Part shown: in pieces, positions 1-31,676 of the stretch
Layout: every line of letters starts with the position of its first letter
Numbering within the stretch: position 1 is the first letter of the stretch
Assembly: GCA_047602405.1 (NCBI GenBank)
Contig: JASGHJ010000001.1
Span: 320,001 to 384,000, forward strand
From: Anaeromyxobacteraceae bacterium
GTDB lineage: Bacteria > Myxococcota > Myxococcia > Myxococcales > Anaeromyxobacteraceae
Direction: 5' to 3'
Length of the DNA stretch: 64,000 nt
The notes under the pieces: generated by a model
Seen by the model: only the letters and a program-made list of their open reading frames with translations
Told to the model about the DNA's origin: nothing
The model's database searches: none
Translations under genes and position numbers: made by a program

Positions 1-2490
1 GACCAGAGCAGGTTCGGCAGCGCGCCCGCGTTGAGCGTGAAGTCGTACCCGCCGGCCACGTGGCAGATCTCGCAGTTGTTGAGGCGGCTCGGGAAGGTGA
101 TCTCCGCGTAGTCCTCGACGTTGTCGTAGCAGGGGTCGACGACCGTGCAGGTGCACGGCGCCGCGACGGTGCAGACGTTCTGGCCCTGCGTGCCCTTCGT
201 GGCCGTGCCCGTGTACTGGGGGACCGCGGCCGCGTGCCAGGTGAAGTCGACGACGCGCTTGCGGGCCGCGTGGATGTCGTGGAGGACGTCCTTGGTGTTC
301 GCCGACCAGCCCGAGGAGGCGCGGTTCGGGTTGTGGCACCAGGAGCAGGACGGGCCGTCGTTGCGCTGGCCGGCGTGGAACGTCGGGTTCGCGCCGAGGA
401 ACGAGTGGCAGGTGAGGCACTTCGCGTTGTCGACGACGACGCGGCGGCCGGTGTAGCCCGTCGCGACCTTCGTGAGGTTCTGGGCCGGCACGATGAGGCC
501 GCCCTGCTTCGTCGCCGGGACGTACGCGTACTTCGCGACGTCGGCCGCGCTCATGCCCGTGAGGTCGGTCTGGGTGAGCGGCTGCGTGGTCGAGAGGCCG
601 TAGGTGTAGCCGAGGCCGCCGGTCAGCATGACCGCGTTGTCACCGACGGTCGTGCCCGTCGCCGTGAGGGTGTAGTACCCGTTCGCGTCGGGGCCGGTGA
701 GCGTCGCCGAGGTGGCCGACTTGTTGTTGATGGCCTTCAGGTAGACGCTCGCCGACATGTTGAAGTCGGCCGGCTTCGCGATGCCGTCCTGCGGGATCGC
801 CCACACGAAGTAGGCGGAGGGCGAGCCGACGAACCCGTCGACGAGCTCCTGGGCGGGGGTCGAGGCGGCGGGCGGCGTCGTGAAGACGACGTCGGTCGTG
901 GTCGTGCCGACCGTCTTCTTGAGCTTGAACACCATCACCGGGTTCTTCGAGGCGTTCCGCGACACGCTCGAGATGTCGTAGGTGATCTTCGCCGCGCCGG
1001 AGGGGACCATGCCCGCGGCCGCGATGAAGGCGGCGTTCGTGTTGTTGTTGCCGGCGCCGAAGCAAGGCGCGGCGACCGTGCAGGTGCAGGGCGCGAACGC
1101 CGTGCAGTTGATGGCGCCGGCGCCGGAGCCCTGGGTGCCCGCGGTGGCGTAGCCGTCGGTCTGGCCGGCCGTGCCGGCCGCCGTCAGGAAGAGGTTCGAC
1201 GCGTCGGGCGGGGCGATGGCGACGTGGTAGCCGCGGACCTTCGCCTCACCGTGGCAGAGCGTGCAGCCGTCGTCGTTCGTCGCGGCGCCGCCGGTGTGGT
1301 TCGTGCCGGTCGTCCAGTCGATGCTGTCGTGGCAGGAGCCGCAGGCCGCGCGGGTCGGGCGGGTGAACGCCTGGGCGCCGAAGGTCGCGCCGCCGTGGCA
1401 CTCGTCGCAGTTCCGGATGTCCTGCGGGTAGGTCACCTCGCGGATGCCGTGGAACGCGTTCGGGACGCAGGGGTTCGTGACCGTGCAGGTGCAGGTGGCG
1501 GTCGCGGAGCAGGTCTTGTCCGCGCCGTTCGTGCCGGCGCCGATCTGGATGCCCTTCGTCTGCGTGCCGGTCGTGATGCGGCTGAGCTCCTCGGAGAAGT
1601 GGATCCGGTGGACGAAGACCATCGCGTCCGCGTCCGGGTTCGAGGTGCGGCCCGGGTTGTGGCAGACGTTGCAGTACGGGCCCTCGACGCGGCCGCCGCC
1701 GTGGAAGGCGTCGGAGAGGAATCTCGGGCTTGAAGTCGGCGTGGCACTTCGAGCAGGCGGCCGTCGTCACGAGCTCGCGCTTCGTGGTCGAGGCGGTGTT
1801 GGTCGCCGGCACGTAGTAGTAGGCCTGGTTCGCCGCGTAGAACGTGAGCACGTTCGAGGTGTTGTCGCGGTCGGTCTGGCGGGACGCCTGGATCCAGATG
1901 ACGTGCGTGTCGTTCAGCTTGGTGGCGTCGTAGGCGACGGCCTGCGCGCCGCCCGCCGTGTTCGCGGTCGGGAACGTGTACGTGTAGTCACCGTTGCCCG
2001 TGCCGTTCTCGACGATCGTACCCTGGCCCGCGGAGCCGGCCGTGAACGAGGTGGGCTGGGGGGTCGTGCCGCTCTTCGTGAGGACGGTCAGCGGCAGCTG
2101 CTTGCCGTTCGCGTCGACCGAGAGGCGGGAGAGGGAGAAGCGGACCGTGAAGGCGGTGTTGACGGAGTAGGCGCCCTTCACGTCCACCGGGTAGCCGGAG
2201 TCGTCCTTGAGCGTGAAGCGGACCGAGATGGCGCCGCTCGTCGAGTCGGTGGAGGTGCTCGCCACCGCAATCTTGAGGCCCTTCGTCACGCCGGGCGCGT
2301 TGGTGCCGCCCGCGGGGCCGGTCGGGCCGGTGGGACCCGTCGGCCCGGTGGGGCCGGTCGGGCCGGTGGGGCCGGGGGCGCCGGTCTGGCCGTCGAGGCC
2401 GTTCTTGCCGTCGGCACCGGCGCAGCCGGTGATCACGAGGGCGCTCGCGAACATCAGCGCGAGACCGCTCTTCCGCATCATTGGGGTCAT
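1..2490 (-). CDS. OmcA/MtrC-family multiheme c-type cytochrome lipoprotein (cytochrome 1); one frameshift at ~1720; 3' end beyond window
   Basis: ATG at 2490 with GGAGAA SD; lipobox VITGC; 13 GXY triplets. Removing one base at 1720/1721 gives a continuous frame with CSKCH, CNVCH, CDECH, CGSCH, CTLCH, then CLTCH, CSWCH, CEICH, plus family motifs VHRIH and TYPQDIRNC. Confidence 0.9.
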
Positions 2491-2556
2491 CGTTTTCTCC
2501 GAGCTTCGGGGACGCTCGAGCCCGCGCTGGGAGAGCGCGGACCACCTTTGGCGGGC

Positions 2557-2585
2557 ATGAACGCGCGGTCCATCAGGGTCGTCAA
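2557..2585 (-). promoter_or_regulatory. Putative promoter TTGACG-N17-GTTCAT of cytochrome 1
   Basis: Same motif, with 17-18 bp spacing, upstream of all four cytochrome genes. Confidence 0.6.
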
Positions 2586-2961
2586 CCAGGGGCCGGATCA
2601 AAACCTATTAGGCCTGGAACTTCGCTCACTTACGGCGCCCCGCAGCCTTTTCGTCGCACCCCTTTCCCCACAAAAGCCGAGTCATCCCAGGATGTTCCCG
2701 TGATCAGGCTCATTTTGCCGCACCTGCTGCGACGCGTCGTCTGGGTCCGGGCTTCCTGAGAGGGGGTCGCGCTAGAATTGCCGTGTCCGCGGGTCAGCGT
2801 CGAGCTCGAACGGCGGGTCCTCCGAGACGCGACAATCCGCCTTTTCCACGTCTTTACGGACCCATGGGGGATGGGTCGCCTGCGCACCCACAGGTAGGTC
2901 AGCAGGGGACCGGCCGACCCCGCAAAAAGAGCAGGGTCACGAAGGCCCCGGAAAGAGCGAA

Positions 2962-2989
2962 GGGCGGGGACGCTCGCGCGCCCCCGCCC
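2962..2989 (-). terminator. GC-rich hairpin downstream of cytochrome 2
   Basis: GGGCGGGG...CCCCGCCC stem followed on the minus strand by TTCGCTCTTT; homologous hairpins follow cytochromes 3 and 4. Confidence 0.55.
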
Positions 2990-3014
2990 CTCATGTTTCA
3001 CCGACCGTGATCGA

Positions 3015-5534
3015 CTACTTGAAGATCGCGGCGATCTTCGCGATCACGGCGTCGAACACGCCGGTGTTGGCGACGAGCAGCGTGCCGTTCGCGTGCTGGT
3101 GCTCGTAGAAGGACGCGAGCAGCGCGGCGTCGTCCTCCTTGATCATCTGCGTGCGGTGGCAGGAGCCGCAGGCGCGGGCGCCCGGGCCGGTCACGTAGGA
3201 CGCGACCGTGCCGATGTTGCGGTCCCAGCCGGCCTTCGGCTGCGACGACGCGGAGAGGACGCTCGCCATCGACCGCGACTGATCAGGGACGTTGTAGGTC
3301 CCGGCGTAGTGGCAGGACTCGCAGTTCTTGATCGAGAAGTTCGGGTAGACGGCGTCGTTCTTCTCCTCGTAGCGGAGCTTCGCGATCGGGTTCGTGAAGT
3401 CGACCGTCGAGAGGTCGAACGCCTGCATCGAGTGGATCGCGTGCACGTACGAGTCGATCGAGCGCGACTGCATCTCGAGGTGCGCGCCGCCGTTGCCGAC
3501 GACGTGGCAGAGGCGGCAGCCGACGACGCCGGCCGAGCCGTAGGACACGTTGTGGAACGTCGTGCCGAGCGCGTCGTGGCACTTGTTGCACTTGTCCGGG
3601 TTCACGATCTGCTTGCCGTAGGAGCCCGCGTCGGCGACGAGCGCCTTGCCCACGAGGTCGAACGTGCGGGTGATGCCCTTGGCCTGGACGTACGGGTTGT
3701 AGTTCGGGTTCGCGCTCGTCACGCTGTTCACGGTGACGGTCGGCGCGTTGTCCGGGGTCTTCGTCTGGTCGAGGCCGATGACCGGGAGGACGCCGATCTC
3801 CATCCGCTTGACCGAGCCGTCCGCGAGCTTCGAGGCCCACAGGGTGAGGTCGGCGACGGCGACCCACGCCTTGTTGCCCGCCGTGGCGGTGGCCGGGGTG
3901 ATGGCGAGGCGCGGGCTGTTGCCCGTCGCGCCCTCGGCCCACTCGAGGTTGCGCTTGCCGTCCGGAGCCGGCTGCGAGCCGTGGCCGCCCACGATGAAGT
4001 CCTTCGTGTCGTAGCCGTAGAGGCTCATCACGACCGTCGGCTTGACGATGGCCTGCGCGTTCAGGTCGGCGCCCGCCATCGAGAAGTTCACGGTGAGCTT
4101 GTTGGTCGTGGCGTCGAACGTCGCGGAGTCGACCGTGGTGGTGATGGCGTACGCGGTCGTCTCGGTCTTGTGGGCCGTCTTGTCGTAGCCGGGGTGAATC
4201 TCGGCGAGCGTCTTGCCCGAGCCGCCGGCCTTGTGGCAGGTCGAGCAGTCGAACGAGCCGTAGAGGTCCATCGTGTGGATGGCCGCGTAGGCCGCCGGGA
4301 TGGCGGTCTTGAGCGCCGGGGCGCGGCCCGGGGCGGTGCCGCCCGTGCCGGTGACCGGGTGGCAGCTCTTGCAGGTCGTCAGGGTGAAGTGCGAGTCCGC
4401 GAGGACGACGTTGAGCTTGCCCGCGTGGCAGGTCGAGCAGTTCGCCATCGACTGCGGATACTCGAACTCGAACGCGTGCGAGTTGTGCGTGTCGTTCATC
4501 ACGTTCGCGACGTAGGCGTACTTCGACTTCTGCGCGGCGGTGAGCACGCCGCCCTGCGTCTCGAAGGCCGCCGGGTCATCGGTGACGAGGTACCAGCCGC
4601 CGTCCGTGCCGCGGCGATCGTCCGTGTGGCAGGCCTTGCAGGCGACGAAGTCGTTCAGGCCGGCGACGGTGGCCTGGCGGTAGCCGTGCTTCGAGTACGG
4701 CGCGCCGTGGCACTTCTCGCAGCCCGTGACCGTGGCCGAGGAGGTGTAGTTGATCGCGCCCTTCACCACCTTCGCGAAGGAGACCATGTTGTCCATGAGC
4801 GCGTAGTGGCGGCCGCCCGGGTTGTCGTTGCCCTCGAGGGTCGGGATGACGGCGTCGCCGAAGTAGCCGTAGACGAACGCGTTCGTCGCGGAGGCCATCG
4901 GGTCGGCGGTGAGGTTGTCCTTCACGGCCGTCCAGGTGCCGGTGGCGGCGTCGGTCAGCGTCCAGCCGCCGAAGGTGAAGTTCTGGGGCGAGCCGGCCAC
5001 GCTGCCGCCGGTCTCACCGGTCGGGTCGGTCGCGGCGTCGTTCACGTACGGCGGCGTCACGAACTTCGTGCCGTCGAACGTCGTGAAGTAGACCGTCTTC
5101 TGCTTCAGCGCGGAGATCGCGTCCGTGTAGGGCTTCCCGCCCTTCTTCAGCGTGAAGGTGACGGTGGCCTTGAAGGTGTTGGCGTTCGTGCCGGGGGTGA
5201 CGTCGACCGTGCCGACGAAGGCGGCCGCGAACTTGGTGCTGCCCTGGTTGATGCCGTCCGCATAGTTGTTGTAGTCGGCCTGGTGCGCCGCGCCGGCCGC
5301 CGGGTGGCAGACCTCGCAGGACTCGGCCTTGGCCGTCTCGGTGAGGTCCTGGCCGGCGGGGCCGGTCGGGCCCGTGGGGCCGGTGGGGCCGGTCGGGCCG
5401 GTGGCGCCGTCCTGGCCGTCGATGCCGTCCGTGCCGTTGGCGCCGGCCTTGCCGTCGGCGCCGGAGCAGCCGCTGATCGCGAGCGTGCCGGCGGCGACCA
5501 CCGCGAGCAGGCTCTTCCAGTTCATCGTGTTCAT
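3015..5534 (-). CDS. OmcA/MtrC-family decaheme cytochrome lipoprotein (cytochrome 2)
   Basis: Start MNTMNWKSLL with GGAGAA SD; lipobox AISGC; 13 GXY; ten CXXCH (CEVCH, CEKCH, CKACH, CSTCH, CKSCH, CSTCH, CNKCH, CRLCH, CESCH, CGSCH). Confidence 0.92.
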   Translation of the reverse strand: MNTMNWKSLLAVVAAGTLAISGCSGADGKAGANGTDGIDGQDGATGPTGPTGPTGPTGPAGQDLTETAKAESCEVCHPAAGAAHQADYNNYADGINQGSTKFAAAFVGTVDVTPGTNANTFKATVTFTLKKGGKPYTDAISALKQKTVYFTTFDGTKFVTPPYVNDAATDPTGETGGSVAGSPQNFTFGGWTLTDAATGTWTAVKDNLTADPMASATNAFVYGYFGDAVIPTLEGNDNPGGRHYALMDNMVSFAKVVKGAINYTSSATVTGCEKCHGAPYSKHGYRQATVAGLNDFVACKACHTDDRRGTDGGWYLVTDDPAAFETQGGVLTAAQKSKYAYVANVMNDTHNSHAFEFEYPQSMANCSTCHAGKLNVVLADSHFTLTTCKSCHPVTGTGGTAPGRAPALKTAIPAAYAAIHTMDLYGSFDCSTCHKAGGSGKTLAEIHPGYDKTAHKTETTAYAITTTVDSATFDATTNKLTVNFSMAGADLNAQAIVKPTVVMSLYGYDTKDFIVGGHGSQPAPDGKRNLEWAEGATGNSPRLAITPATATAGNKAWVAVADLTLWASKLADGSVKRMEIGVLPVIGLDQTKTPDNAPTVTVNSVTSANPNYNPYVQAKGITRTFDLVGKALVADAGSYGKQIVNPDKCNKCHDALGTTFHNVSYGSAGVVGCRLCHVVGNGGAHLEMQSRSIDSYVHAIHSMQAFDLSTVDFTNPIAKLRYEEKNDAVYPNFSIKNCESCHYAGTYNVPDQSRSMASVLSASSQPKAGWDRNIGTVASYVTGPGARACGSCHRTQMIKEDDAALLASFYEHQHANGTLLVANTGVFDAVIAKIAAIFK

Positions 5535-5720
5535 CGCGTGTGTTTCTCCGAGCTGATGCGTCCGTGGACTGCTGCTGCGTGCTTCAGGAAGCTGCGGGGG
5601 TACTCGCACGGTGAAGCTGCGTGCGAGCTCGACTTCACGCGGCCATGAACGCCCCGGCCACGGAGCGGGTCAACAACTCGGCTCCACTTTGTTCAATCGG
5701 CGCGCAATCCCGGCCACTTG
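5535..5720. repeat. 5' leader/promoter region of cytochrome 2, homologous to 8890-9071
   Basis: Shared blocks GCGTGTGTTTCTCCGAGCTGATGCGTCCGTGGAC, GCTGCGGGGGT..CGCACGGTGAA, GGCCATGAACGCC, GGGTCAACA and GCGCAATCCCGSCCACTTGC. Confidence 0.85.
5645..5673 (-). promoter_or_regulatory. Putative promoter TTGACC-N17-GTTCAT of cytochrome 2
   Basis: Motif conserved across paralogs while the spacer sequence differs. Confidence 0.6.
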
Positions 5721-6100
5721 CAGTGCGCGCAATCTTGGCGCCGCTCGACCTTTCGTAAAATCCGCTGTCGGCGCCGTGTAAACGGCCGAGATCAGGTGGC
5801 TCCTCGACCGGGTAGTCACGCGGCCTCCCCTCGCGCACATCGGCCCCCGGCGAATCGCGCAATCATCGCGCCTGGGGGCACGCAATTCGTGGCGCGGCCC
5901 TGGGTGCGTCCGGCCTGCGTGAAATGACCCACGCGCCGGGCACGCGCCGGGAGCGCCCCGGAGTGCGACCATCACCGCGGGTCAACACCTCGCTTTCACC
6001 CCTGGGCCCGTGGGGTTGCGGCGCCACGCCCGGCGGCGCGGCGGCCGGGAGCGGTGCGACACGAGCCGTGATCGAGGGACGCGCGGAGGCGCCGCAGCGA

Positions 6101-6240
6101 GGGTCGCGAGCACCCGCGCGGTCGCGCCGCACTCGCGGCGATCCGCCGCGCGCGTGGGCGCGCATCACCGAAGGTGACGGAGCACGAAAGGCGAGGGGCG
6201 GAGGCGCTCGACGCGCCCCCGCCCCTCGATGTTCACCTAC
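6101..6240. repeat. ~140 bp 3' element with terminator-like hairpin (6192-6228), copy 1
   Basis: Colinear with 9451-9590; several short inverted repeats; ends ATGTTCACCTAC. Confidence 0.85.
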
Positions 6241-6249
6241 TGTGACTGG

Positions 6250-8889
6250 CTACGGCAGCTTCGCGGCGTCGATCAGCGCCTGACGGCCGCCGGTGACCGG
6301 CGCCGGCAGGATGCCGTTCGTGTACGCGTGGGTCCGGAGGATGAACTGCTCCACCGGGTCACGCGACTGGTGGCAGGTCATGCAGGAGGCCGCGCCGGGG
6401 CCGACGAGGACGTCGTCGGTGAGCCCCGGGAGATCACCCCAGGGCGCCGCGCCGGCGTCCTGCTCGGTGACCGCGACGGCCAGCGTCGGATCCGGCATCT
6501 CCTCGACCGCGCCGTCCACGTGGCAGGCGCTGCAGTCGGCGAGCGCACGCGGGTAGTGCACCTCGACGAAGTTGTGCGTCTTCGTCACGGCCGTGGTGTT
6601 GGCGGCGTCGCACTGCGTCCCGGTGGCCGTGGAGGGCGCGCCGGAGCCCGCGACGACCTTGCAGCCGGTGCCCGGCCACGCGGGCTGCGCGGCGAGGGCC
6701 TCCTTCGAGCCGAAGAAGTAGACGCCGTTCGTCCGGTAGAAGACGAGCGGCTCACCCGAGCCGGCCTCGCCCGCGGAGTGGATCGCGTGCACCATCGAGC
6801 GCAGGTCGTAGGTCTGGCCCACCTGGCCGTCGTACGCCTCCGCCGCCGTGACGCCCATGGCGACCCGGTTGTTCTTCTCGTTCGCCGCGGGGTTGTGGCA
6901 CATCACGCAGAGCTCGATCGAGTCCACGCGGTTGCCGCCGTGCTGGTACATCGAGCCGAGGTGGCAGGCCTCGCACTTCGCGAAGCTGACGATCTGCCGG
7001 CGCGGGACGGCCGGGGCGGCGCCCGTGCCGACGACGAACTCGCGCGAGGGCGAGGTCGAGCGGATCTGGATCACGGCGGAGGTCGTGCCCGCCGTCGGGG
7101 TGAACGCGATCTGCGGCTTGCCCTGGAGCGAGACGATGCCCTTCGTGGCGGTGGTCGTCTCGACCGGGATCGTCGTGGTGGCGACGTTCGCGGCGCAGGT
7201 CGTGTTCGTGGCGGTGACGTTCACGGCGGCGCCCGGCTGGCCGGGGCTCGTGCCCGGGCCACCGACCCAGTCGTTGCCGATCGCGTAGGCGCGGAGGACC
7301 GACAGGTTGCTCGCGACCTGACCCGTGGTGGCGTTCGCGGTCGCGCCGAAGAAGACCGGCGCGGTCGCCGAGACCGTCTGGTTGCAGGGGTTGACCGCGG
7401 TGCCGCCCTGCGTGGCGGTCCAGGTGATGACGAGGTTCGTGCCGGAGACCGACACGCCCGTGATGTTCATGAGCACCGAGTCACCGAGGACGACCGACTG
7501 ATCGGCGCCGTCCCAGATCAGGCCGCCGCGCTCCGTGCGCGCGCCGTTGTGGAACTCGGCCACGCGGTCGGGCATGGCGTCGGCGAGGGTGTTGTCGGTG
7601 TCCGGGGTGTGGCACGTGGCGGTGCAGGTGGTCAGCGTCGCCGTGGCGGCGGTGATGTTCCGGTGCAGCGCCGCGGCCGAGCCGCCCACGACCGTCTTCG
7701 AGAAGCCGTCCCAGTTCTGGTGGCAGGACATGCAGAGGCGCCAGCTCGGCGGCTGGTCCTGGACCCGGGCGAGGGTCGCCGGCGTGTTGTGGCAGACCGA
7801 GCAGTTGTTCATGTAGCTCGGGAAGCCGACCGAGAACGAGGAGCTGACCGTGGGGACCGGCGGGTTGTCGTTGTTCGGGTTCTTCGCGCCGCCGACGCTG
7901 CGGACGTAGGTGCCGGCCGGCGCGGGGGCGTCGTACCAGCCCTCGGCGAGCGGGCCGTTGTTGGCGTTCGAGACGCGGTCCGGATCCCAGCGGCGGGCGA
8001 CGTTGCCGCCCGGCATGTTGTGGGAGTTGTGGATGCCGTGGACGTAGCCCATCAGGCGCGAGCCGCCGCCCGTGGAGAGGTCGGCCGCCGTCGCGCCGGT
8101 GACGCCCAGGCCGGGGCCCGCGGAGTCCCAGCGGTTGTGGCACACGACGCACGCCTCGACGCCGCGCGGGTTCACGCCGTGGTGCTCGGCCGCCTCCGGG
8201 CCCTCGGGCTCGCGGAAGACCTTGTCGCCGTGGCAGTTGAAGCAGGAGACGTTCGAGACGACGAAGGCGTCGGCGCCGCCGAGGTGCACGACGACGGTCG
8301 CGGCGTCGGGGGCGTTGCCGTTGTCGATGCGGAGCATGAACGTCGTGCCGGCCGCGAAGTCGGGCTCGCGGACGTTCGGGCCGAAGCCGGCGATGGTGGC
8401 CTCGTAGTCGCCGTTCCACTTGTTGACGAGCGTGATCGGGTTCACGGCCGTGTCGATGCTGGTGCGGACGCCGTACTTCGAGGTGGCGTTCCGGACCCAC
8501 CAGTAGCCGCCCACGACGTGCGTGAAGTTGTTGGCGTTGACGCCGTCGACCTTCACGTTGAAGCGGATGACGAGGTTGTTGTCGGTGGCGACGGGGGCGA
8601 CCAGCGCCTCCTCGGCCACGGTGACGATGCCGCGCGCGGCGTGGCGCGTGGCGATCCCGCCGTGGCAGCCGTCGCACTTCTCGGTGAGGGAGACGGGGGC
8701 CGGCGAGCCGGGATCACCCTTGGGGCCGGTGGGCCCCGTCGGGCCGGTGGGGCCGGTCGGGCCCGTGGTGCCGGGCGAGCCGGTGGCGCCGTCGAGGCCG
8801 TTCTTGCCGTCGGCGCCGGAACAGCCGCTGATCGCGAGCGTGCCGGCGGCGACGACCGCGAGCAGGCCCTTCCAGTTCAAGGTGTTCAT
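6250..8889 (-). CDS. OmcA/MtrC-family decaheme cytochrome lipoprotein (cytochrome 3)
   Basis: Start MNTLNWKGLL; lipobox AISGC; 13 GXY; nine CXXCH plus one CXXXCH (CTATCH). Confidence 0.92.
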   Translation of the reverse strand: MNTLNWKGLLAVVAAGTLAISGCSGADGKNGLDGATGSPGTTGPTGPTGPTGPTGPKGDPGSPAPVSLTEKCDGCHGGIATRHAARGIVTVAEEALVAPVATDNNLVIRFNVKVDGVNANNFTHVVGGYWWVRNATSKYGVRTSIDTAVNPITLVNKWNGDYEATIAGFGPNVREPDFAAGTTFMLRIDNGNAPDAATVVVHLGGADAFVVSNVSCFNCHGDKVFREPEGPEAAEHHGVNPRGVEACVVCHNRWDSAGPGLGVTGATAADLSTGGGSRLMGYVHGIHNSHNMPGGNVARRWDPDRVSNANNGPLAEGWYDAPAPAGTYVRSVGGAKNPNNDNPPVPTVSSSFSVGFPSYMNNCSVCHNTPATLARVQDQPPSWRLCMSCHQNWDGFSKTVVGGSAAALHRNITAATATLTTCTATCHTPDTDNTLADAMPDRVAEFHNGARTERGGLIWDGADQSVVLGDSVLMNITGVSVSGTNLVITWTATQGGTAVNPCNQTVSATAPVFFGATANATTGQVASNLSVLRAYAIGNDWVGGPGTSPGQPGAAVNVTATNTTCAANVATTTIPVETTTATKGIVSLQGKPQIAFTPTAGTTSAVIQIRSTSPSREFVVGTGAAPAVPRRQIVSFAKCEACHLGSMYQHGGNRVDSIELCVMCHNPAANEKNNRVAMGVTAAEAYDGQVGQTYDLRSMVHAIHSAGEAGSGEPLVFYRTNGVYFFGSKEALAAQPAWPGTGCKVVAGSGAPSTATGTQCDAANTTAVTKTHNFVEVHYPRALADCSACHVDGAVEEMPDPTLAVAVTEQDAGAAPWGDLPGLTDDVLVGPGAASCMTCHQSRDPVEQFILRTHAYTNGILPAPVTGGRQALIDAAKLP

Positions 8890-8994
8890 TGCGTGTGTTT
8901 CTCCGAGCTGATGCGTCCGTGGACCGCTGACTTCGACAGGAGGCTGCGGGGGTGCGCGCACGGTGAACTCCTCCGCGCGCGCGATTGCGTGGCC

Positions 8995-9023
8995 ATGAAC
9001 GCCGGTCTCGCGCGGGGGGTCAA
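8995..9023 (-). promoter_or_regulatory. Putative promoter TTGACC-N17-GTTCAT of cytochrome 3
   Basis: Conserved motif and spacing. Confidence 0.6.
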
Positions 9024-9450
9024 CATCTCGACCTTGCATCGTGCAATGGCGGCGCAATCCCGCCCACTTGCGGATCGCGCAGGATTCGCGCGGCGGCGCC
9101 GCCCCCGATCACCTCCGGGCGCATCGCCCAACCCACGGTGATCTCGATGCTCCTTGCCCGCGTGGGCGAACACCCCTCGTCGCCCCACATCACCCGGCGC
9201 CAGATCGCGCATTCCTTGCGACCTCGAGGCGCAGATCGGTGCGCGCGCCTGGGTGCCGGTGGACTGCGTGAAATCACCCATACGTTCCGTGAAAATCCGC
9301 GCCGCCCCGGATCTCCGTCTCCACCCTCCGTGAACCACGGAGGTTGGTCTGCGATCCCGTGCGGTTGAGGCACGGCGGGGACGGGCGGGGGTGCCGCGAT
9401 CGGGGCGGCACGTCCCGTGCGCCGGGGACGCCGACGAGGACGCGAGGTAC

Positions 9451-9590
9451 GGGTCGCGCGCACCCGCGCGGCCAGGCCGCACCCGCGGCGTCCTGCCGCG
9501 CGCGCCGGGGCGCATCACGGAGGGTGACCGTGCACGAAGCGCGGGGGGCGGAGGCGCCGTCCGCGCCCCCGCCCCCCGATGTTCACCTAC
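9451..9590. repeat. ~140 bp 3' element with terminator-like hairpin (9542-9578), copy 2
   Basis: Colinear with 6101-6240. Confidence 0.85.
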
Positions 9591-9645
9591 CGTCACCACC
9601 TCCCGTGCGCCGGGCGCTCCGGCACCCGGGGAGCGGGCCGCCGCG

Positions 9646-12207
9646 CTACTTCGCGGCGTCGATCAGCGTCTGCCGCCCGTTCGCGAACACGCCCGGCGTG
9701 AAGCCGTTCACGGAGGCGTGGTTGCGGAGCGCCCGCTGCATGGCCGGGTCGCTCGACTGGTGGCAGGTCATGCAGGACTGCGCGGACGGGCCGATGAGCA
9801 CGTCGTCGGTCAGGACGTTCCACGGGGCGGCGCCCGGGTCGAGCGTGACGGCCATGGCGGCCAGCGGGTCGGGCAGCCGGTCCACCGCGCCGTCGACGTG
9901 GCACGCGTTGCAGTCGTTGAGGGCGCGCGGGTAGTGGATCCCGCGGACCCGGTGCGGACGCCAGGTGCCCGCGGTGCTGTTGACGAGGCCGGTGTCCTTG
10001 CAGGTGCCGTCGGCGTTGGCGACGGGCACCGTCCCGGTCGCGCTCGAGCCGAAGACCTTGCAGAAGGTGAGCGGACCGTCCTCGGCGTCGACGCAGGAGA
10101 CGCAGTCGGCCGCGGCCGGCCAGTTCTGGACGCCGACGGGCTTGCCGGTGGCGTCGAGCGCGCCGAAGAAGAAGATGCCGTTCGTGCGGTAGTACATGAG
10201 CGGCACCTGCGTCTCGGCGGCGGCGTGGATGGCGTGGACCATCGTGCGCAGGTCGTACGACTCACCCGGCTTGCCGTCGTAGGCCTCGGCCGCGGTGACC
10301 TCGATGTCCACCCGGCGGTTCTTCTCGTTGCCGGCCGGGTTGTGGCACATCACGCACAGCTCGATGCTGTCCACGCGGCTGCCGCCGTGCTGGTACAGCG
10401 TCCCGACGTGGCAGGCGTTGCACTTCTCCACCTCCACGACCTGGCGGCGCGCGGCCGCGGGCAGTGCGCCGTCCGCGACGAGGAACTCGCGGGTCGGGGT
10501 CTTCGCGCGGACCCACACGACGTTGCCGTTGCCGGCGAACTTCACCTGCGGCTTGCCCTGGAGGGCGACGATCCCGCGGGTGGCCGCGGTGGTCTGGACC
10601 GGCACCACGGTCTTCGCGACCTTGTTCGCGTCGCAGGTGGTGTTGGTCGAGGCGAGCGTCGTCGAGCCGGCCGGCTGGCCGGGCACCGTGGCGCCGGTGA
10701 GGGCGTCGTTCACCCAGTCGTCACCGAGCGCGTAGGCGCGGAGGATGCTCATCGTGCTGCCGCAGCCCGCGGTGGTGTTGGTGCAGCCCTCGGTGGCGCC
10801 CGTCTTGCCGAAGAAGACCGGGCCCACCGCGTAGTCGGCGTTGCACGGGTCGTACTTCGCGTTCGCGTTCGTCGGATTGGAGGCGGTCCAGGTGATCTCG
10901 AGGTTCGTGCCGACCTTCGCGACGCCGGTGATGGCGAGCGCGAACTTCTTCGCGAGCACCATCGACTGGTCGGCGCCGTCCCAGATGAGGCCCGCGCGTT
11001 CGGTGACGAGGCCGTTGTGGAACTCGCCGAGGGTCTTCCTCACGCTGCCGGTGTGGCAGGTCGTGCAGTCGGTGGCCGACGTGACGCTGCCGTGGACGGT
11101 GAGCATCGCCGCGGACATCCCGAAGCCGTCGATGCCGTCGTGGCAGGAGATGCAGAGCGCGTACGAGATCGGCGCGTTCCGCACGGCGTCGAGGCGCGCC
11201 GGCGTGTCGTGGCACGTCGCGCAGTTCGGCATGTTGCCGGGGAAGCCGACCGCGAAGTCGAACTTGTTCCCGTTGGTCCAGGTGAACGTGTACTTCCCGT
11301 CGGGCATGTTGAGGGAGTTGTGCACGCCGTGCACGATGCCCATCAGGCCGGTGCCGGCCCCGGGGAGCCGCGGGTCGGCGCTGCCGGTGCGGTTGTGGCA
11401 CACGACGCACGGGCCGACGCCCTGCGGATTCGTCACGTCGTGGGCCGCGCCGCGCCAGACGTGGTTGCCGTGGCAGTCGATGCAGACCTGATCGCCGACC
11501 ACGTCGTTCGGGCGGTCGCCGTAGCTCGCCACCACGGTCGCCGTCATCTCGTTCGGGCCCATCGCGCTGAGCATGAACGTCGTCCCGGCGGCGGGCACGG
11601 CGGTGAAGCCGGTGACGGTCGCGGTGTAGTTGCCGTTGCCGTTCGGCGCGATGGTCCAGGCGTAGCCGCCCTGGAGCTTGGTCCGGACGCCCGCGTGCTG
11701 CGCGGCGTCCCACACCCAGAACGCGTCCTCGTTGTGGGCGCGCAGGTCGGACGCCTTCGACAGGAAGTCGATGCGGGGCACGCCGCCGACCCGGACGTTG
11801 TACCGGACGGTGACGGCGAAGGTCGTCGGGTTCACCTCGACCGCGGGGAGCTGGATCGAGGGCGTGCCCGCGTTGCCGTCGTGGTCGACCAGCGCGGGGG
11901 CGCCGGCCGCGGTCCAGTGCTGGGGCTTCGTCGCGACCGCGTCGTTGCCCTGCACCGCGTGCCTGGAGCCCGCGCCGTCGTGGCAGCCGGCGCAGTTCTC
12001 GGTCATCGAGACCGGGGCCGGCGTGCCCGGGTCACCCTTGGGCCCGGTGGGGCCGGTCGGCCCGGTGGGACCGGTCGGGCCCGTGGCGCCCGGGGCGCCG
12101 TTCTGGCCGGTGAGGCCGTCCTTGCCGTCGGCGCCGGAACAGCCGGCGATCACGAGCGCGCCCGCGGCCAGCATCGCGAGCGCGCGCTTCGAGCTCATCT
12201 TGGTCAT
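9646..12207 (-). CDS. OmcA/MtrC-family decaheme cytochrome lipoprotein (cytochrome 4)
   Basis: Start MTKMSSKRAL with GGAGAA SD; lipobox VIAGC; 13 GXY; ten CXXCH; C-terminal half clearly paralogous to cytochrome 3 (YQHGGxRVDSIELCVMCHNPA). Confidence 0.92.
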   Translation of the reverse strand: MTKMSSKRALAMLAAGALVIAGCSGADGKDGLTGQNGAPGATGPTGPTGPTGPTGPKGDPGTPAPVSMTENCAGCHDGAGSRHAVQGNDAVATKPQHWTAAGAPALVDHDGNAGTPSIQLPAVEVNPTTFAVTVRYNVRVGGVPRIDFLSKASDLRAHNEDAFWVWDAAQHAGVRTKLQGGYAWTIAPNGNGNYTATVTGFTAVPAAGTTFMLSAMGPNEMTATVVASYGDRPNDVVGDQVCIDCHGNHVWRGAAHDVTNPQGVGPCVVCHNRTGSADPRLPGAGTGLMGIVHGVHNSLNMPDGKYTFTWTNGNKFDFAVGFPGNMPNCATCHDTPARLDAVRNAPISYALCISCHDGIDGFGMSAAMLTVHGSVTSATDCTTCHTGSVRKTLGEFHNGLVTERAGLIWDGADQSMVLAKKFALAITGVAKVGTNLEITWTASNPTNANAKYDPCNADYAVGPVFFGKTGATEGCTNTTAGCGSTMSILRAYALGDDWVNDALTGATVPGQPAGSTTLASTNTTCDANKVAKTVVPVQTTAATRGIVALQGKPQVKFAGNGNVVWVRAKTPTREFLVADGALPAAARRQVVEVEKCNACHVGTLYQHGGSRVDSIELCVMCHNPAGNEKNRRVDIEVTAAEAYDGKPGESYDLRTMVHAIHAAAETQVPLMYYRTNGIFFFGALDATGKPVGVQNWPAAADCVSCVDAEDGPLTFCKVFGSSATGTVPVANADGTCKDTGLVNSTAGTWRPHRVRGIHYPRALNDCNACHVDGAVDRLPDPLAAMAVTLDPGAAPWNVLTDDVLIGPSAQSCMTCHQSSDPAMQRALRNHASVNGFTPGVFANGRQTLIDAAK

Positions 12208-12277
12208 CGAGCATTCTCCGAGCAATAGGGGAGGCTACTTCACTGATCGTCCGTGGAACCCCCGGTACAACCCGGGC

Positions 12278-12307
12278 ATGAGGCGCCTCCTGCACCCGGA
12301 TGGTCAA
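12278..12307 (-). promoter_or_regulatory. Putative promoter TTGACC-N18-CCTCAT of cytochrome 4
   Basis: Variant of the motif upstream of the other three paralogs. Confidence 0.5.
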
Positions 12308-12436
12308 CGCACACGAGGTCGCGCGCGGCGACGCGCACTCACCGTGAGGCTGTGCCTTCGCGACGACCTACGTTTTCTGAAAGTGAACTATGCGTGCACG
12401 GCGGAACGCCGCGCCCGCGCGGGTGATCGAAATGCG

Positions 12437-12463
12437 CGCGGCCGCCCGGATGGGGCGGCCGCG
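12437..12463 (-). terminator. Hairpin downstream of fadJ
   Basis: Perfect 11-bp stem CGCGGCCGCCC/GGGCGGCCGCG, 30 bp after the fadJ stop; weak U tract. Confidence 0.45.
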
Positions 12464-12492
12464 GGTGCGACGCGATGCTGCCGGCGAACCGC

Positions 12493-14669
12493 TCAGCCGT
12501 GGAACGGCTTCGCGGCCCTGCCCTTCTCGACCAGGAGCGGCGCCGGGGCGAACCGCTCGCCGTGCTTCGCGCGCAGCCGCTCCATGCGCTCGAGGAGCGC
12601 ACCCGTGCCGACCGAGTCCGCCCACCGGAACGGCCCGCCCAGGAACGGCGGGAAGCCGAGGCCGAACACCGCGCCGATGTCGCCGTCGCGGGCGCTGCGG
12701 AGGATGCCCTCACCCAGGCAGAGGATCGCCTCGTTGACCATCTGGAGCGCGACGCGCTCGCGGATCTCCTCGTGAGGGATCTCTTGCGGGTGCGACCGCC
12801 CGGCAACAGGTCGTACACGGTCTCGTCGACGCGCTTCTCCTTGTCGTCGTACGTGTAGAAGCCCTTCCTGTTCTTCCGGCCCAGGCGCCCTGCCGCGACG
12901 ACGTCGTGCAGCGCCTCGGGCGGCGTCATGCGCGCGCCGAAGGCGCCGTGCAGGATCTTGCCGACCTTGTCGCCGACGTCGATGCCGACCTCGTCGAGGA
13001 GCGTGATCGGGCCGACCGGGAAGCCGAACTCGACGAGCGCGCGGTCGAGGTCCTCGATCGCGGCGCCCTCCACGAGGAGCTGCGCGGCCTCGTTCATGTA
13101 CGGCCCGAGGATGCGGCTCGTGTAGAAGCCCGGGCCGTCCCGCACCACGATGACGGTCTTCCCCTGCTTCTTGCCCACCGCCACCGCGGTCGCCGTCGCC
13201 TCCGGGGAGGTCCGGTCGGTGACGATGATCTCGAGGAGCGGCATCTTGTTGACCGGCGAGAAGTAGTGCATCCCGAGCACGGTCTCGGGGTGCCTCGACG
13301 CCTTCGCGATGTCGCCGATCGGGATCGACGAGGTGTTCGACGCGAAGATGCCGGTCGGGTTCACCTCCTCGAACGCCTTCACCATCGCCTGCTTGAGCGC
13401 GAGGTCCTCGAAGACCGCCTCGATCAGCACCTCGGTGGCCGCGAAGCCGGACCAGTCGGTGGTGGTGGTGAGGAGCCGCATGGTGGCGGCGCGGTCGAGC
13501 TTGTCCATCGACTTGCGCTTCACGCGCTCGTCGAGGATCTGCTTCACCGAGGCGAGCGCCTTCGCGCCGGCCGCGTCGTCCCGCTCGCGCAGGCGCACCG
13601 GGATCCCGGCGCCGACGGTGACGTAGGCGATGCCGGAGCCCATGAGCCCGCCGCCGAGCACGCCCACCGCGTTCACCTTGCGCGGCTTCACCGAGGCGTC
13701 GTCGACGCCGGAGTCCTTCTTGAGCGCGGTGGTCGCGAAGAAGATCTCGATCAGCCGCTTCGCGACCGGGGTGACCGCGAGCTTCCCGAAGGCCCTCGCC
13801 TCGGCGAGGAGCCCCTTCTCCATCCCGCCCGCGTAGCCCTCCTCGACCACGTCGATCGCGGCGAGCGGCGCGGGGTAGTGGCCGCGGGTCTTCTTGAGGA
13901 CCTGCTTGCGCGCCTGGGAGAAGAGCAGCTGGCGGCCGAGGAAGTTCTCCTCGAGGGCCAGCTGCGTCGCCCGCTCCATGGCGCCCTTCTTCGGCGGCGG
14001 CGGGCGGCGGAACTTGCCCTCGCCGATGGCGCGGGCGCGCTCGCGCGCCACCTGGACGAGGAGCGCGGGCGGGACGACCTCGTCCACGAGCCCGAGCCGG
14101 AGCGCCTTCTTCGCCTTCACGCTCTTGCCGGCGAGGATGATGTCGAGCGCGGCGGCGATGCCGATGAGGCGGGGCAGCCGCTGGGTGCCGCCCGCGCCGG
14201 GGATGAGGCCGAGCTGGGTCTCGGGGAGGCCGAGCTGCGTCTTCGGATCGGACGAGGCGATGCGGTACTGGCACGCGAGCGCCCACTCGAGGCCGCCGCC
14301 CAGCGCCGCGCCGTGGATCGCGGCGATCACCGGCTTCTTCGAGGCGGCGAGGCGGTCGAAGCCGAGCTGGCCCTCGCGCGAGAGCTGCTCGGCCTCCTCG
14401 GCGGTCTCGACCGCCTGGAGCATGTCGATCTTCGCGCCGGCGATGAAGCCTTCCTTCTTGCCGCTCGTGAAGACGATGCCCTTCACCGCGGCGTCGCCCT
14501 GGAGCTGCTCGAGGATCGCCGCGAACTCGGCGCCCACGCCCGGCTCGACCACGTTCAGGGTCTCGCCGGGCTCGTCGAGCCAGAGGGTGGCGACGCCGTC
14601 CGCCACCTCCACCTTGAAGTTCTTCCAGCCGCCCGCCGCCTGCTTCGCCTGCGCCGTCGCCGTCGTCAT
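12493..14669 (-). CDS. fadJ: Fatty acid oxidation complex subunit alpha (enoyl-CoA hydratase/3-hydroxyacyl-CoA dehydrogenase); frameshift at ~12783
   Basis: ALGGGLEWAL, LPETQLGLIPGAGGTQRLPRL, GGGLMGSG, MHYFSPV. The C-terminus (EIRERVALQMVNEA...GFPPFLGGPF) continues in another frame after one missing base. Confidence 0.93.
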
Positions 14670-14684
14670 GGTCGGGTCTCCCTG

Positions 14685-15989
14685 CTAGTCGCGCTCGAGG
14701 ACGAGGACCGCGCCGAGGGCGCCCGCGGCGCAGACCGTCAGCATCGCGGTGTGGCCGTCGCGCCGCTCGAGCTCGCGGAGCGTCTGGGTGATCATGCGCG
14801 CGCCGGTCGCCGCGAAGGGGTGGCCGATCGCGATCGAGCCGCCGTTCACGTTGAGCTTCGCGGGGTCGACCTCGCCGAGGGGCTCCTTGCGGCCGAGCTC
14901 CTTCTCCGCGAAGTCCTTCGAGGCGAACGCCTTCAGGTTCGAGAGCACCTGGGCGGCGAAGGCCTCGTGCATGTCCACGAGGTCGAGATCCTGGAGCTTC
15001 AGGCCCGCGCGCTCGAGCGCGATGGGCGCCGCGTAGGCCGGACCCTGCAGGAGCTGGTCCTTCGGGTCGAGCGCGGCGTAGGCCCAGCTCCTGATGTAGC
15101 CGAGGGGCTTCAACCCCAGCGCCTTCGCCTTCTCCTCGGCCATCACGATCACCGCCGCGGCGCCGTCGGTGAGCGGCGAGGCGTTGCCGGCGGTGATGGA
15201 GCCGTAGCGCTTGTCGAAGACGGGCCTGAGCTGCGAGAGCGCCTCGACGGTGGTGTCCTTGCGGACGATGTTGTCCTTCGCGGCGACCCGCTCGTACCTC
15301 GGCGGCACCGCGACGTGCATCACCTCGGCGTCGAACTTGCCCGCCTCCCAGGCGGCGGCCGCGCGCCGGTGGCTCTCGTAGGCGAGCCGGTCCTGGCTCT
15401 CGCGGGAGATGCCGTTCTTCTGCGCCATCTGCTCGGCGCTCTCGCCCATGGTGAGGCCGGTGGTGGGCTCCTTCAGCGCCGGGGGTACCGGGGTGAAGTC
15501 CTTCGGGCGGAGCGTGGAGAGGATCTTGAGGCGGTCGGGGACCGTCTTCGCCCTCGAGAGCTCGACGAGCGTCTGGGCGAGGGTGCGGGTCGCGAAGATG
15601 GGCGCATCCGAGATCGACTCGGCGCCGCCGGCGATGGCGACGTCGGAGTTGCCGAGCGCGATCTGCGAGGCGGCGTCGGTGGCGGCCTGGATCGAGGTGG
15701 CGCACGCCCGGGCGACGGTGTTCGCCTGCACCGAGCGCGGGAGCTGGCTGCGCAGCACCATCTCGCGCCCGATCAGCGTCACGTTCACGGACGGCACGAC
15801 CTGCCCGAAGATCACCGAGTCGAACTCCTTCGGCGCGATCCCGCTGCGCACCACGAGCTCGTTCACGACCGCGGCGCCGAGGTCGACGGCCGACAGGTCC
15901 TTGAACTCGGTGCCCGCCTTCACGAAGGGCGTCCTGAGGCCCATGACGACCGCGGCCCGCCGGCCCGCGGGGATTCGGTTCTGGCCCAT
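14685..15989 (-). CDS. fadI: 3-ketoacyl-CoA thiolase
   Basis: RTPFVK, RACATS, MHEAFAAQ, GGSIAIGHPFAATG, VCAAG; adjacent to fadJ. Confidence 0.93.
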   Translation of the reverse strand: MGQNRIPAGRRAAVVMGLRTPFVKAGTEFKDLSAVDLGAAVVNELVVRSGIAPKEFDSVIFGQVVPSVNVTLIGREMVLRSQLPRSVQANTVARACATSIQAATDAASQIALGNSDVAIAGGAESISDAPIFATRTLAQTLVELSRAKTVPDRLKILSTLRPKDFTPVPPALKEPTTGLTMGESAEQMAQKNGISRESQDRLAYESHRRAAAAWEAGKFDAEVMHVAVPPRYERVAAKDNIVRKDTTVEALSQLRPVFDKRYGSITAGNASPLTDGAAAVIVMAEEKAKALGLKPLGYIRSWAYAALDPKDQLLQGPAYAAPIALERAGLKLQDLDLVDMHEAFAAQVLSNLKAFASKDFAEKELGRKEPLGEVDPAKLNVNGGSIAIGHPFAATGARMITQTLRELERRDGHTAMLTVCAAGALGAVLVLERD

Positions 15990-16032
15990 GGTCAGCTCCG
16001 CTGATTCTGGAATCGGTTGGACTGCGACATTC

Positions 16033-16062
16033 TTACTAGGGGCCTTAGCGCACCGTGTCAAC
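16033..16062 (-). promoter_or_regulatory. Putative sigma70 promoter of fadIJ
   Basis: TTGACA-N18-TAGTAA on the minus strand in an AT-richer patch. Confidence 0.45.
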
Positions 16063-16144
16063 GACGGCGGCAGGCAGGCCCCTGCCGGGTCTCCTGCGGG
16101 GGTCCGGGGTTGCGCCGGCCCTTCCTCGCGGCCAAGGGAATGGG

Positions 16145-16594
16145 ATGAAGCGCTCCCGAGCCCTCCGGCCGCTCTCGTCCGAGCACCACCAGGCATTGCT
16201 CGTCGCGTTCAAGGTCCGGAAGGCCCTCGCCGGGCACGCCGAGGCCGCCGGCGCGCCCCGCGACCTGCCCGGGCTCGTGCAGCTCGTCCGGCGCTTCGAC
16301 GAGCAGCTCCTGACGCCGCACACGAAGGCCGAGGAGGAGCTCCTCGGCGCGTACCTGACCGAGGGCGACATGGCCCGGCTGCGCGAGGAGCACCTCGAGC
16401 TGCGCCGGCTCGCGGCGGCTGCACGGACCGCCCAGGGGGACGACGCCCGTCACCACCTCTCTGCCTTCGCGGACCTGCTCGAGCGCCACGTGCGCTGGGA
16501 GGAGCGCGACCTCTTCCCGTATGCGGAGGATCACGTCGACCCCGCCACGCTCGAGGGGATCGGCGGGGAGATCGAGAAGCGGCTGGTGCGTTAG
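16145..16594 (+). CDS. Hemerythrin (HHE) domain protein
   Basis: LSSEHHQAL, HTKAEEE, EEH, HVRWEERDLFP. Confidence 0.8.
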   Translation: MKRSRALRPLSSEHHQALLVAFKVRKALAGHAEAAGAPRDLPGLVQLVRRFDEQLLTPHTKAEEELLGAYLTEGDMARLREEHLELRRLAAAARTAQGDDARHHLSAFADLLERHVRWEERDLFPYAEDHVDPATLEGIGGEIEKRLVR

Positions 16595-16657
16595 GGCGTC
16601 CCTCGTCTCCGGGCCCGCTGCGCGGGCCCTACGGCCGGGACGGACGGATGCTGGACC

Positions 16658-17635
16658 TCAATCGCTGGATTCGGAGGGCCCGCCGCTCTTCGCGACGTCC
16701 TCGGCCTTGATCTTCCCGGGGTCCATGCCCGAGGCGCGCTTCGTCATCGTCTCCAGGAGCTCGTCGAAGGGCGGCACGCTGCCCTTCATGAACCGGAGCG
16801 GGTTGATGCGCGCGACCACGAAGGCCTTCAGGTAGGGCGAGTCGAAGCCCTTCGCCTTGAGCCGCTCGACCGCGCCCGCGACCGCGTCGTCGAGCCCGAG
16901 CACGAGCTTCGCCCGGCGCTCGCGCTCCTCGAGCGCCTTCGAGCACTTCTGGTCGAGGAAGCCGTCGATCTTCTTCAGCACCGGCGAGTACGCGCCGCCG
17001 GAGAGCCGGCCGCGCTGCTCGTAGCAGAACCCGAGCGTCACGAGCGAGGGCTCCTCGAACTCGAGGGCCATCTCGGACTCCTTCGGGTCGAGGGAGCCGG
17101 CGAGGTCGCGGTACATCCGCACGACCTCGAGCGCCTTCTCGCGGAGGTTGTGCGCCTTCTCGATGTTGAGCGCGAGGATCTGGTAGGCGACGACCTTCTC
17201 CGGCACGACGAGCGCCAGCACCGCCTTCGCGCCGAGCTCCTTGAGCGCGGTGAGGCGGTGGCCGCCGTTCGGCGAGAGGTACCGGTCGCCCTCGCGGATG
17301 CAGATGATGGGGTCGAGGTACCGCTTCGTCTTGTCCATCGCGAGCGTCAGCTTGCGCACGTGGGCGTCGGAGACGTCGCGCTGGAAGACGGTGCGGTCGA
17401 CCTTCTCGATGGGGAGCGACGCGAAGAGGAGCGGGTTCCCGCCGAGCGGCTCCCGGTACGCGGCGAGCACCGCCCCGCCGTCCGCCTCGATCGCCTCGGC
17501 GAGCGCCGCGACCTCGGACGGCCGCTCGGCGAGCACGAGCTCCTTCGGGCCGAGCTCGGTCGGCTTCAGCTTCACGCCCTTGCGGGCGCGGGGGCGCCCG
17601 CTCTTCGTCACCGGCCGCTTCTTCGTCGTCGCCAT
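16658..17635 (-). CDS. ParB/Srx N-terminal domain protein (orphan)
   Basis: FQRD...YLDPII...YLSPNGGHRLTAL...ALN; basic N-terminus. Confidence 0.75.
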   Translation of the reverse strand: MATTKKRPVTKSGRPRARKGVKLKPTELGPKELVLAERPSEVAALAEAIEADGGAVLAAYREPLGGNPLLFASLPIEKVDRTVFQRDVSDAHVRKLTLAMDKTKRYLDPIICIREGDRYLSPNGGHRLTALKELGAKAVLALVVPEKVVAYQILALNIEKAHNLREKALEVVRMYRDLAGSLDPKESEMALEFEEPSLVTLGFCYEQRGRLSGGAYSPVLKKIDGFLDQKCSKALEERERRAKLVLGLDDAVAGAVERLKAKGFDSPYLKAFVVARINPLRFMKGSVPPFDELLETMTKRASGMDPGKIKAEDVAKSGGPSESSD

Positions 17636-17648
17636 GCCCTCGATTCTA

Positions 17649-18842: not shown

Positions 18843-18845
18843 TAG
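17775..18845 (+). CDS. IS630-family DDE transposase
   Basis: GTG start with GGAGGAG SD; HTH N-terminus; FYEDE, LILDN, LPPYCPDDNRIERVW. Confidence 0.93.
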   Translation: MHNIPRLDRAVRRRLIRRAKKTKDPHTALRFLMIAKLGQGLSRQQVARDLACVPSTVVKAAQRFADAGEEGLLDQRAFNGVRKVDLRFKEELERVLHSVPTEFGWQRTTWTRELLGCELERRQLPRVAPCTMGRALSAIGARLRMPKPTVACPWETGRRKRVLARLRRVAKNATPEEPVFYEDEMDVHLNPKIGRDWMPRGLRRYVLTPGQNRKRFVAGALNATTRRMTWVEAPTKASELFHKLVWKLLGEYRAARRIHLILDNYIIHSSKKTKRFLAQFGDRVVLHFLPPYCPDDNRIERVWLDLHANVTRNHRCKTIEELMVQVIAFLRAYNQRKKLNPSLKLAAGVSGSRSVV

Positions 18846-18886
18846 CGGTAGCGGGCGCGCCGGCGGGGCGCTAGAAGGGGCATTCC

Positions 18887-31614: not shown

Positions 31615-31676
31615 CGACCCGGCCGGCCCGAGGACCCGATGCTCCCCCGGTCGTCCGCCTCCGGAGGTCTCGCCCC

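Follow-up and report, generated by a model that had tools for sequence, protein, structure and literature searches.

Why should four tandem genes whose protein products have strongly diverged carry tethers of exactly the same length? The genes in question lie at one end of a 64,000-nucleotide stretch of an Anaeromyxobacteraceae genome (assembly GCA_047602405.1, contig JASGHJ010000001.1, positions 320,001 to 384,000), here called the window, and encode multihaem cytochrome lipoproteins in which a collagen-like run of Gly-X-Y triplets, the tether, joins the lipobox cysteine to the haem-bearing head. All four are on the minus strand, with ATG start codons at 12207 (gene 1), 8889 (gene 2), 5534 (gene 3) and 2490 (gene 4). 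Each has a lipobox signal peptide by sequence pattern (4/4), with Cys codons at 12139-12141, 8821-8823, 5466-5468 and 2422-2424, and in each a tether of 117 nt, or 13 unbroken triplets, begins at Cys+2; residue +2 is Ser or Ala throughout. The tethers contain 4, 4, 4 and 6 GPT triplets, respectively. An earlier note on this DNA, made from the sequence alone, had placed the four 13-triplet runs at these positions and reported a differing composition (6 versus 4 GPT), and our recount agrees on both points. It went on to propose that the length itself is selected; we find instead that length varies freely among relatives, and that the match within the array is likely a product of DNA exchange between neighbouring genes.

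Family, fold and haem pattern

By sequence, genes 1-4 are MtrC/OmcA-type, surface-class decahaem lipoproteins. Their scores against PF22113 are 140, 135, 95 and 66 bits (cut-off 30). Against TIGR03507, genes 1-3 score 181, 143 and 142 bits, all under the curated cut-off of 209.3, and gene 4, through its downstream frame (217.7 bits), is the only one of the four to pass. Gene 1 (9646 to 12207; 853 aa) and gene 3 (3015 to 5534) each encode ten haem-binding motifs, gene 2 (6250 to 8889) encodes nine CxxCH plus one CxxxCH, and gene 4 (1 to 2490) encodes 1+9 across a frameshift. The end of gene 4 lies 531 bases left of the window, and one additional base near 1719 breaks its frame when compared with the intact orthologue in a sister genome (G010), whose DNA is about 87% identical to that of the genome of the window (G000; 98% complete, with frameshifts in the assembly). 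This break is probably an assembly error, because fadJ next to the array is likewise out of frame by one base. One-base frameshifts in otherwise conserved genes at window positions 1719 and 12782, and at G000:C2:1890191-1892688, suggest assembly indel errors.

The structure of gene 1, the only gene modelled, was predicted from 76 sequences with a pLDDT of 87.3 (below 50 in the tether part, which is uninformative). The best structural matches of the model are OmcA, MtrC, UndA and MtrF (Foldseek E 1e-15 to 1e-12), and VIA gives Z values of 15-17 at an rmsd of ~6 Å over ~500 aligned residues, covering MtrC residues 45-632 only; these matches support the four-domain beta-barrel/haem fold for gene 1. 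A single-sequence search of the PDB returned nothing, and a profile search did match. The haems of genes 1-3, which represent two deep clades, are arranged 1+5+4; one motif directly follows the tether and the last MtrC haem segment is unaligned, suggesting a shift of the tenth haem to the N-terminus. In the G010 orthologue of gene 4 the arrangement is the usual 5+5, as divided between domains II and IV in the strict TIGR03507 family.

The heads are only distantly alike. BLAST identity is ~44% between genes 1 and 2 and ~25% between genes 1 and 3, and between gene 1 and the unbroken gene 4 orthologue of G010 there is no BLAST match at 1e-3. In a FastTree phylogeny of 102 heads (local supports only; two long branches are joined together), genes 1 and 2 group together (clade A), gene 3 belongs to a second clade (B) and the gene 4 orthologue, standing in for the frameshifted and excluded gene 4, to a third (C). 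Among source-named matches the closest group is Anaeromyxobacteraceae. A recent whole-gene duplication was considered as the cause of the equal tethers and rejected, since the heads belong to three deep clades. The family match, the lipobox and the low head identities (~25-44%) all support the earlier description of surface-type multihaem lipoproteins with diverged bodies; judged by family, these proteins would sit on the outer surface and reduce extracellular acceptors.

Tether length and the probable exchange of leader DNA

We followed tether length through 183 family lipoproteins from 84 genomes, 124 of them stalked. Open reading frames (ORFs) without a called lipobox, poly-Gly linkers, runs of fewer than 4 triplets and a frameshifted middle gene of one genome (G022) were omitted from the counts, and the lipobox caller is a simple pattern that misses some true signals. 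The tether is present across Myxococcota, Desulfobacterota and Gammaproteobacteria, and the run starts at Cys+2 in 109/124 stalked proteins. In its strictest form, the reading of the earlier note would be that a length of exactly 13 triplets is under selection because obligate mix-and-match heterotrimers have to stay in register at a fixed height of ~11 nm above the membrane. All four genes (4/4) do have 13, and tandem neighbours are often within two triplets of each other (12/18 combined Myxococcota pairs; 26/36 mostly gammaproteobacterial pairs). Exact equality, however, is seen in only 2/18 and 10/36 of these pairs, and many genomes have a single gene at the corresponding chromosomal slot. 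A fifth stalked decahaem lipoprotein of the same genome, from another head clade (G000:C1:420867-423660), has 18 triplets, two further G000 family members have none, and the three-gene cluster of the sister genome has 13/14/13, with 14 in the orthologue of gene 3. Stalked lipoproteins outside G000 have 13 triplets in 5/119 cases (range 4-46, median 11). The triplet count across homologs, whose free variation the note had itself named beforehand as one observation that would refute it, varies freely even in the six closest relatives of gene 1 (46, 13, 10, 9, 10 and 27). In a separate set of 120 database proteins, the 81 with a called lipobox have runs of 1-50 triplets, with 13 in 6; the other 39, many of which are fragments, were omitted. 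A fixed 13-triplet rule is refuted for the family by this spread, and selection for exactly 13 in this array is very improbable. Register, if it matters, would depend on the shared starting point at Cys+2 rather than on equal length.

Three observations on related runs stand apart from these counts. A non-cytochrome lipoprotein of the same genome (G000:C2:2935082-2935945; L228) has an unbroken 13-triplet run starting 17 residues past its Cys and no other family match, possibly by chance. The relatives at L186, L213, L214, L217, L220 and L222 have only 3-4 triplets, followed by a Cys-containing repeat segment, perhaps an alternative spacer. L097 and L037 are tandem arrays of another set of MtrC-family lipoproteins, with 9-12 haems and no Gly-X-Y tether, and there too the signal peptides of neighbours look alike.

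The equality of the four tethers still needs a cause, since four independent draws from the lengths of relatives would be equal with a probability of only ~0.0025. The draws are not independent, however: the tethers of genes 1 (12019 to 12135), 2 (8701 to 8817) and 4 (2302 to 2418) share 93-98/117 nt, even though heads 1 and 4 have no BLAST match. The leader of gene 2 (5' UTR, signal peptide and lipobox; 8818 to 8925) is identical to that of gene 3 (5463 to 5570) at 101/108 nt, whereas its tether is nearer to that of gene 1 (98/117 nt) than to that of gene 3 (5346 to 5462; 77/117 nt). Gene 2 is a mosaic, with a gene-3-type leader on a gene-1-type stalk and head. A 1.2-kb block is also duplicated over the two intergenic regions; one copy (5358 to 6558), an old tandem duplication comprising a clade A head end, the intergenic region and a leader, is 69% identical to 8722-9936. 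Read from the DNA, the leader/tether split of gene 2 and the duplicated block together are the pattern of unequal crossover at the shared lipobox.

The same sharing is seen in other genomes. Signal DNA is more alike between tandem neighbours of different clades (0.73) than between same-clade genes of different genomes (0.59), and the DNA of the first four triplets behaves likewise (0.75 vs 0.57). At one locus (L301) the leaders are identical over 51/51 nt and the first triplets over 36/36 nt on heads that are 31% identical, and G022 contains a case resembling it. The array lies between fadI/fadJ and a sensor kinase; the fadJ-type fatty-acid oxidation gene (12339 to 14669, minus strand), which carries the one-base frameshift near 12782, is the conserved upstream flank of the cytochrome slot. 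Both flanks recur in 26 of the 180 loci fetched (26 genomes), where they enclose 1-3 heads from at least 6 clades in varied order, all called ones being stalked. With its G010 counterpart, gene 1 shares 63% identity and gene 2 60%, and either a gain of gene 2 in G000 or its loss in G010 would fit. We consider it likely that the four lengths are equal through recombination or gene conversion, because leader-plus-tether DNA appears to have been exchanged between neighbouring genes. The modular character that the earlier note ascribed to the system is apparent both in leader and tether DNA common to neighbours with heads ~30% identical and in the slot with its changing heads.

Conversion between neighbours does not account for all of the matching. 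The earlier claim that paralogue lengths are alike beyond chance holds in three sets, with p-values that treat kin as independent and overstate the significance to that extent. Within the genus set, same-genome pairs from different clades differ by 0.27 log units, compared with 0.47 when shuffled (p=0.001, without G000 and two near-duplicate genomes); an independent set of 24 pairs from other genera and families gives 0.345 vs 0.581 (p=0.003), and the 36 mostly gammaproteobacterial tandem pairs form the third set (p=0.0007). Unlinked genes of the same genome are matched too (p=0.0009 combined; G283 32/34, G247 21/17), and same-genome pairs with little common composition remain alike in length (0.36 vs 0.59; for example G021 17/15 and G008 9/8), which tells against conversion as a sufficient cause. 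These low-similarity and unlinked pairs may leave room for genome-level selection or a slippage bias. They are what one would expect if tether length were selected in each genome to fit the thickness of the surface layer (LPS, S-layer or slime), so that unrelated paralogues converge on one height. Such a fit is hard to square with genomes of mixed lengths (G022 25/15/7/9; G190 20/4; G000 13 vs 18), and the genus result weakens to p=0.03 once two long-stalk genomes are also dropped. The same pattern would follow from kinship, from slippage biased across a whole genome or from old conversion, and we regard surface-layer fitting as quite unlikely.

Triple helix or leash

Whatever sets its length, the Gly-X-Y frame looks to be under selection, judging from its sequence alone. 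Gly occupies every third position in 62 of 69 tethers whose limits were set from the Cys and the first haem without regard to Gly, and 5 of the remaining 7 merely begin in another frame; only 2/124 runs are interrupted, which supports the collagen-like frame of the earlier note. The frame persists for up to 50 triplets across 101 triplet types (Pro 44% at X, Thr 28% at Y), with Gly kept while 53% of X/Y positions are off the modal residue, and the Gly codons vary synonymously. The collagen family PF01391 is above cut-off in genes 1-3 and slightly under it in gene 4. Bacterial collagens have a similar preference for Pro at X and Thr at Y (PMC8968730).

What is directly supported is the family and fold, the variable length, the DNA of leaders and tethers that unrelated heads have in common, the mosaic nature of gene 2 and the slot with changing heads. 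For the system as a whole we tentatively favor an account whose chances we place just short of balanced: in these MtrC/OmcA-type ten-haem lipoproteins the tether would zip into a triple helix that is free to evolve in length, and equal lengths would arise by leader-tether conversion. The proteins would be exported to the outer surface, where the lipidated Cys would hold them. Crowding in the membrane would start off a short helix, ~11 nm long at 0.86 nm per triplet, able to pivot at its two-residue base and at the linker of about ten residues above it. The heads would take electrons from a porin and 12-haem conduit encoded elsewhere, and from one another, and hand them on to acceptors outside the cell such as minerals. 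Because leader and tether stay constant, they would act as homology arms for the duplication, swapping and loss of heads. Purified MtrC and OmcA are reported to form a 1:2 complex (review PMC3279761), which we count in favor of this account.

A number of points weigh against the helix. In the 13-triplet tethers Pro fills only 5-8/26 X/Y positions, and because even (Gly-Pro-Pro)10 melts at ~27 °C (PMC7824840), a free 13-mer may be unstable. Scl proteins rely on a nucleating domain (PMC8968730) and none is known here: family scans of the four genes gave no match to a trimerisation-domain family, and no such domain is known for the cytochrome family. Many tethers have just 4-7 triplets, which is probably not enough for folding, and 9-bp slippage could partly renew perfect periodicity. 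Soluble MtrC is monomeric and binds MtrAB 1:1 (PMC8415449), and no stable MtrCAB-OmcA complex has been reported (PMC12304082). A rigid upright rod would also keep the head off its conduit, because MtrC haem 5 lies only 8 Å from MtrA haem 10 (PMC7198977); a pivoting rod or a leash would avoid this separation. On the sequence evidence, the case that 13-mer tethers form a triple helix is about evenly poised.

A rival reading makes the tether a monomeric extended leash (polyproline-II-like or disordered) that aids sorting and the reach of the head, its periodicity renewed by 9-bp turnover and its equal lengths produced by conversion. About half of the outer-membrane lipoproteins of Escherichia coli have a disordered N-terminal linker that is needed for sorting (bioRxiv 10.1101/2021.01.05.425367), the stalk is absent in 59/183 family members, many of which have poly-Gly or Ser/Pro linkers instead, and the Gly-X-Y tether is also found on non-cytochrome lipoproteins. 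The MtrC of Shewanella, whose run has 5 triplets, is a monomer and pairs 1:1 with MtrAB. Stalked gene arrays lie directly 5' of mtrA (above cut-off) in 5/79 loci, all in Gammaproteobacteria, with 10, 8, 5, 10 and 8 triplets in the last gene; an MtrB-like ORF follows mtrA in 5/5, with Pfam confirmation in all 3 scanned. A leash should nonetheless tolerate Gly loss and phase breaks, which the near absence of interrupted runs and the retention of Gly across so many triplet types, in runs of up to 50, speak against. We consider the leash quite possible, though on the doubtful side.

If the favored triple helix does form, its consequences could extend beyond this array. MtrC-family cytochromes might assemble in threes via a membrane-nucleated collagen helix, with conversion keeping the tethers of an array compatible, so that mixed trimers would be drawn from a swappable cassette at a lineage-tuned height. 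The reported 1:2 complex of MtrC and OmcA in Shewanella, so far without an explanation, would then be the short-tether case. This extension we think unlikely.

A putative electron conduit and known systems

The proposed account includes a conduit for electrons. As the earlier note had stated for the window, no mtrA/mtrB-like gene is seen among its ORFs, and none is seen in those of the 25 kb leftward. The note had suggested looking to the left for a porin or periplasmic cytochrome gene; this candidate was ruled out, as the ORFs directly left of the window, read from their translations, are a sensor kinase and selA-like and NADH-dehydrogenase-like genes. Across G000, as assembled, there is no TIGR03509 or PF11854 match and no TIGR03508 match above cut-off; control genomes also gave no match with the mtrA/mtrB models, and the same models matched L238, L285 and L307 in a separate scan. 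What G000 does contain is a porin-like gene, frameshifted in the assembly, followed by a gene for a 345-aa, 12-haem protein (G000:C2:238638-236269). Homologues of the 12-haem protein occur in 15 of the 180 loci fetched around MtrC-family genes, together with the porin in 9, and G020 has the pair inside the same slot. We infer that this pair may serve the stalked cytochromes; that the link comes from gene neighborhood in other genomes alone counts against the proposal. For the surface cytochromes of Shewanella, diffusion has been measured and exchange by collision proposed (PMC9171617).

Other barrels and cytochromes of G000 were noted. Two candidate barrels, at G000:C1:445068 and C2:2082956, were set aside for want of a family match above cut-off. 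At G000:C1:445068-447099 and C2:507111-509198, a predicted beta-barrel is paired with a 6-haem cytochrome, the two pairs being paralogous, the C1 pair without a family match above cut-off and the C2 pair preceding ferredoxin-like and oxidoreductase-like ORFs (read from translations). G000:C2:2076061-2089149 encodes 16-, 26- and 6-haem cytochromes, an NHL-like protein and a barrel-like ORF.

Elsewhere in the window, positions 17775-18845 encode a DDE transposase with an N-terminal helix-turn-helix (PF13358), which we presume to belong to an IS630-type element. A minus-strand ORF of 3273 codons (31611-41432) has no Pfam match at 1e-5; other frames carry overlapping long ORFs and the coding frame is unsettled. 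An ORF at 60389-63994 has a type III polyketide synthase (chalcone/stilbene synthase domains) at its end. An Rfam scan of window positions 1-20000 gave no match, promoter and terminator scans performed at a level no better than chance, and sequencing runs contain at most 0.13 of the words from window positions 1200-5600.

In cytochromes of the MtrC family, the segment that links the lipid anchor to the first folded domain is treated as a passive anchor. Here it is strictly periodic, of collagen type, matched within genomes and exchanged between unrelated heads. Our literature search found no account of a collagen-type tether on MtrC/OmcA-type cytochromes, and the word 'collagen' is absent from the main text of PMC8805035; supplements and genome-paper tables, which lay outside the search, could mention one. 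If the tether trimerises, the view of surface cytochrome organization would change, with a bearing on the 1:2 ratio long reported for MtrC and OmcA. Should it not trimerise, head swapping in one constant place on the chromosome is clearly seen here all the same, and tether length offers a natural way to adjust contact with an electrode or mineral.

The closest known proteins are MtrC, MtrF, OmcA and the undecahaem UndA of Shewanella (PDB 4lm8, 6r2q, 6qyc, 3pmq, 4lmh, 3ucp; PF22113, TIGR03507), our reference set. Like the Shewanella decahaems, the proteins described here have a lipoprotein signal, ten haems, two beta-barrel and two haem domains, and Gly-X-Y after the Cys; searching the PDB by profile shows 5-6 triplets at the same position in MtrF, OmcA and the MtrC of S. 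baltica. This likeness, together with the stalked genes that precede mtrA-mtrB, weakens the contrast that the earlier note drew with MtrC on MtrAB. The differences are the length (13 triplets rather than 5-6), the 1+5+4 haems and sub-cut-off TIGR03507 scores of genes 1-3, the lack of a detected mtrAB in G000 and the organization as a variable array in one chromosomal slot. The putative conduit resembles the Pcc clusters of Anaeromyxobacter, described in PMC4245776 as encoding a cytochrome of 338-344 aa with 12-14 haems and lacking an outer-membrane cytochrome gene; the likeness is one of size, haem count and gene order, not of sequence comparison, and the G000 pair is unlinked to the array. 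Geobacter PgcA (PMC5732950) is likewise an extracellular cytochrome lipoprotein with Pro/Thr-rich tandem repeats, but it has three haems, its PTx repeats lie between the haems without a Gly frame, and its circular dichroism spectrum indicated no unusual secondary structure. Finally, Scl1/Scl2 of Streptococcus have 50-79 triplets, as opposed to 13 triplets with an N-terminal lipid anchor, an 85-kDa redox head, no recognised trimerisation domain and a putative helix. With these proteins and BclA of Bacillus (PF01391), the tethered cytochromes share unbroken Gly-X-Y, Pro at X and Thr at Y, a variable repeat number and a rod-plus-globule design.

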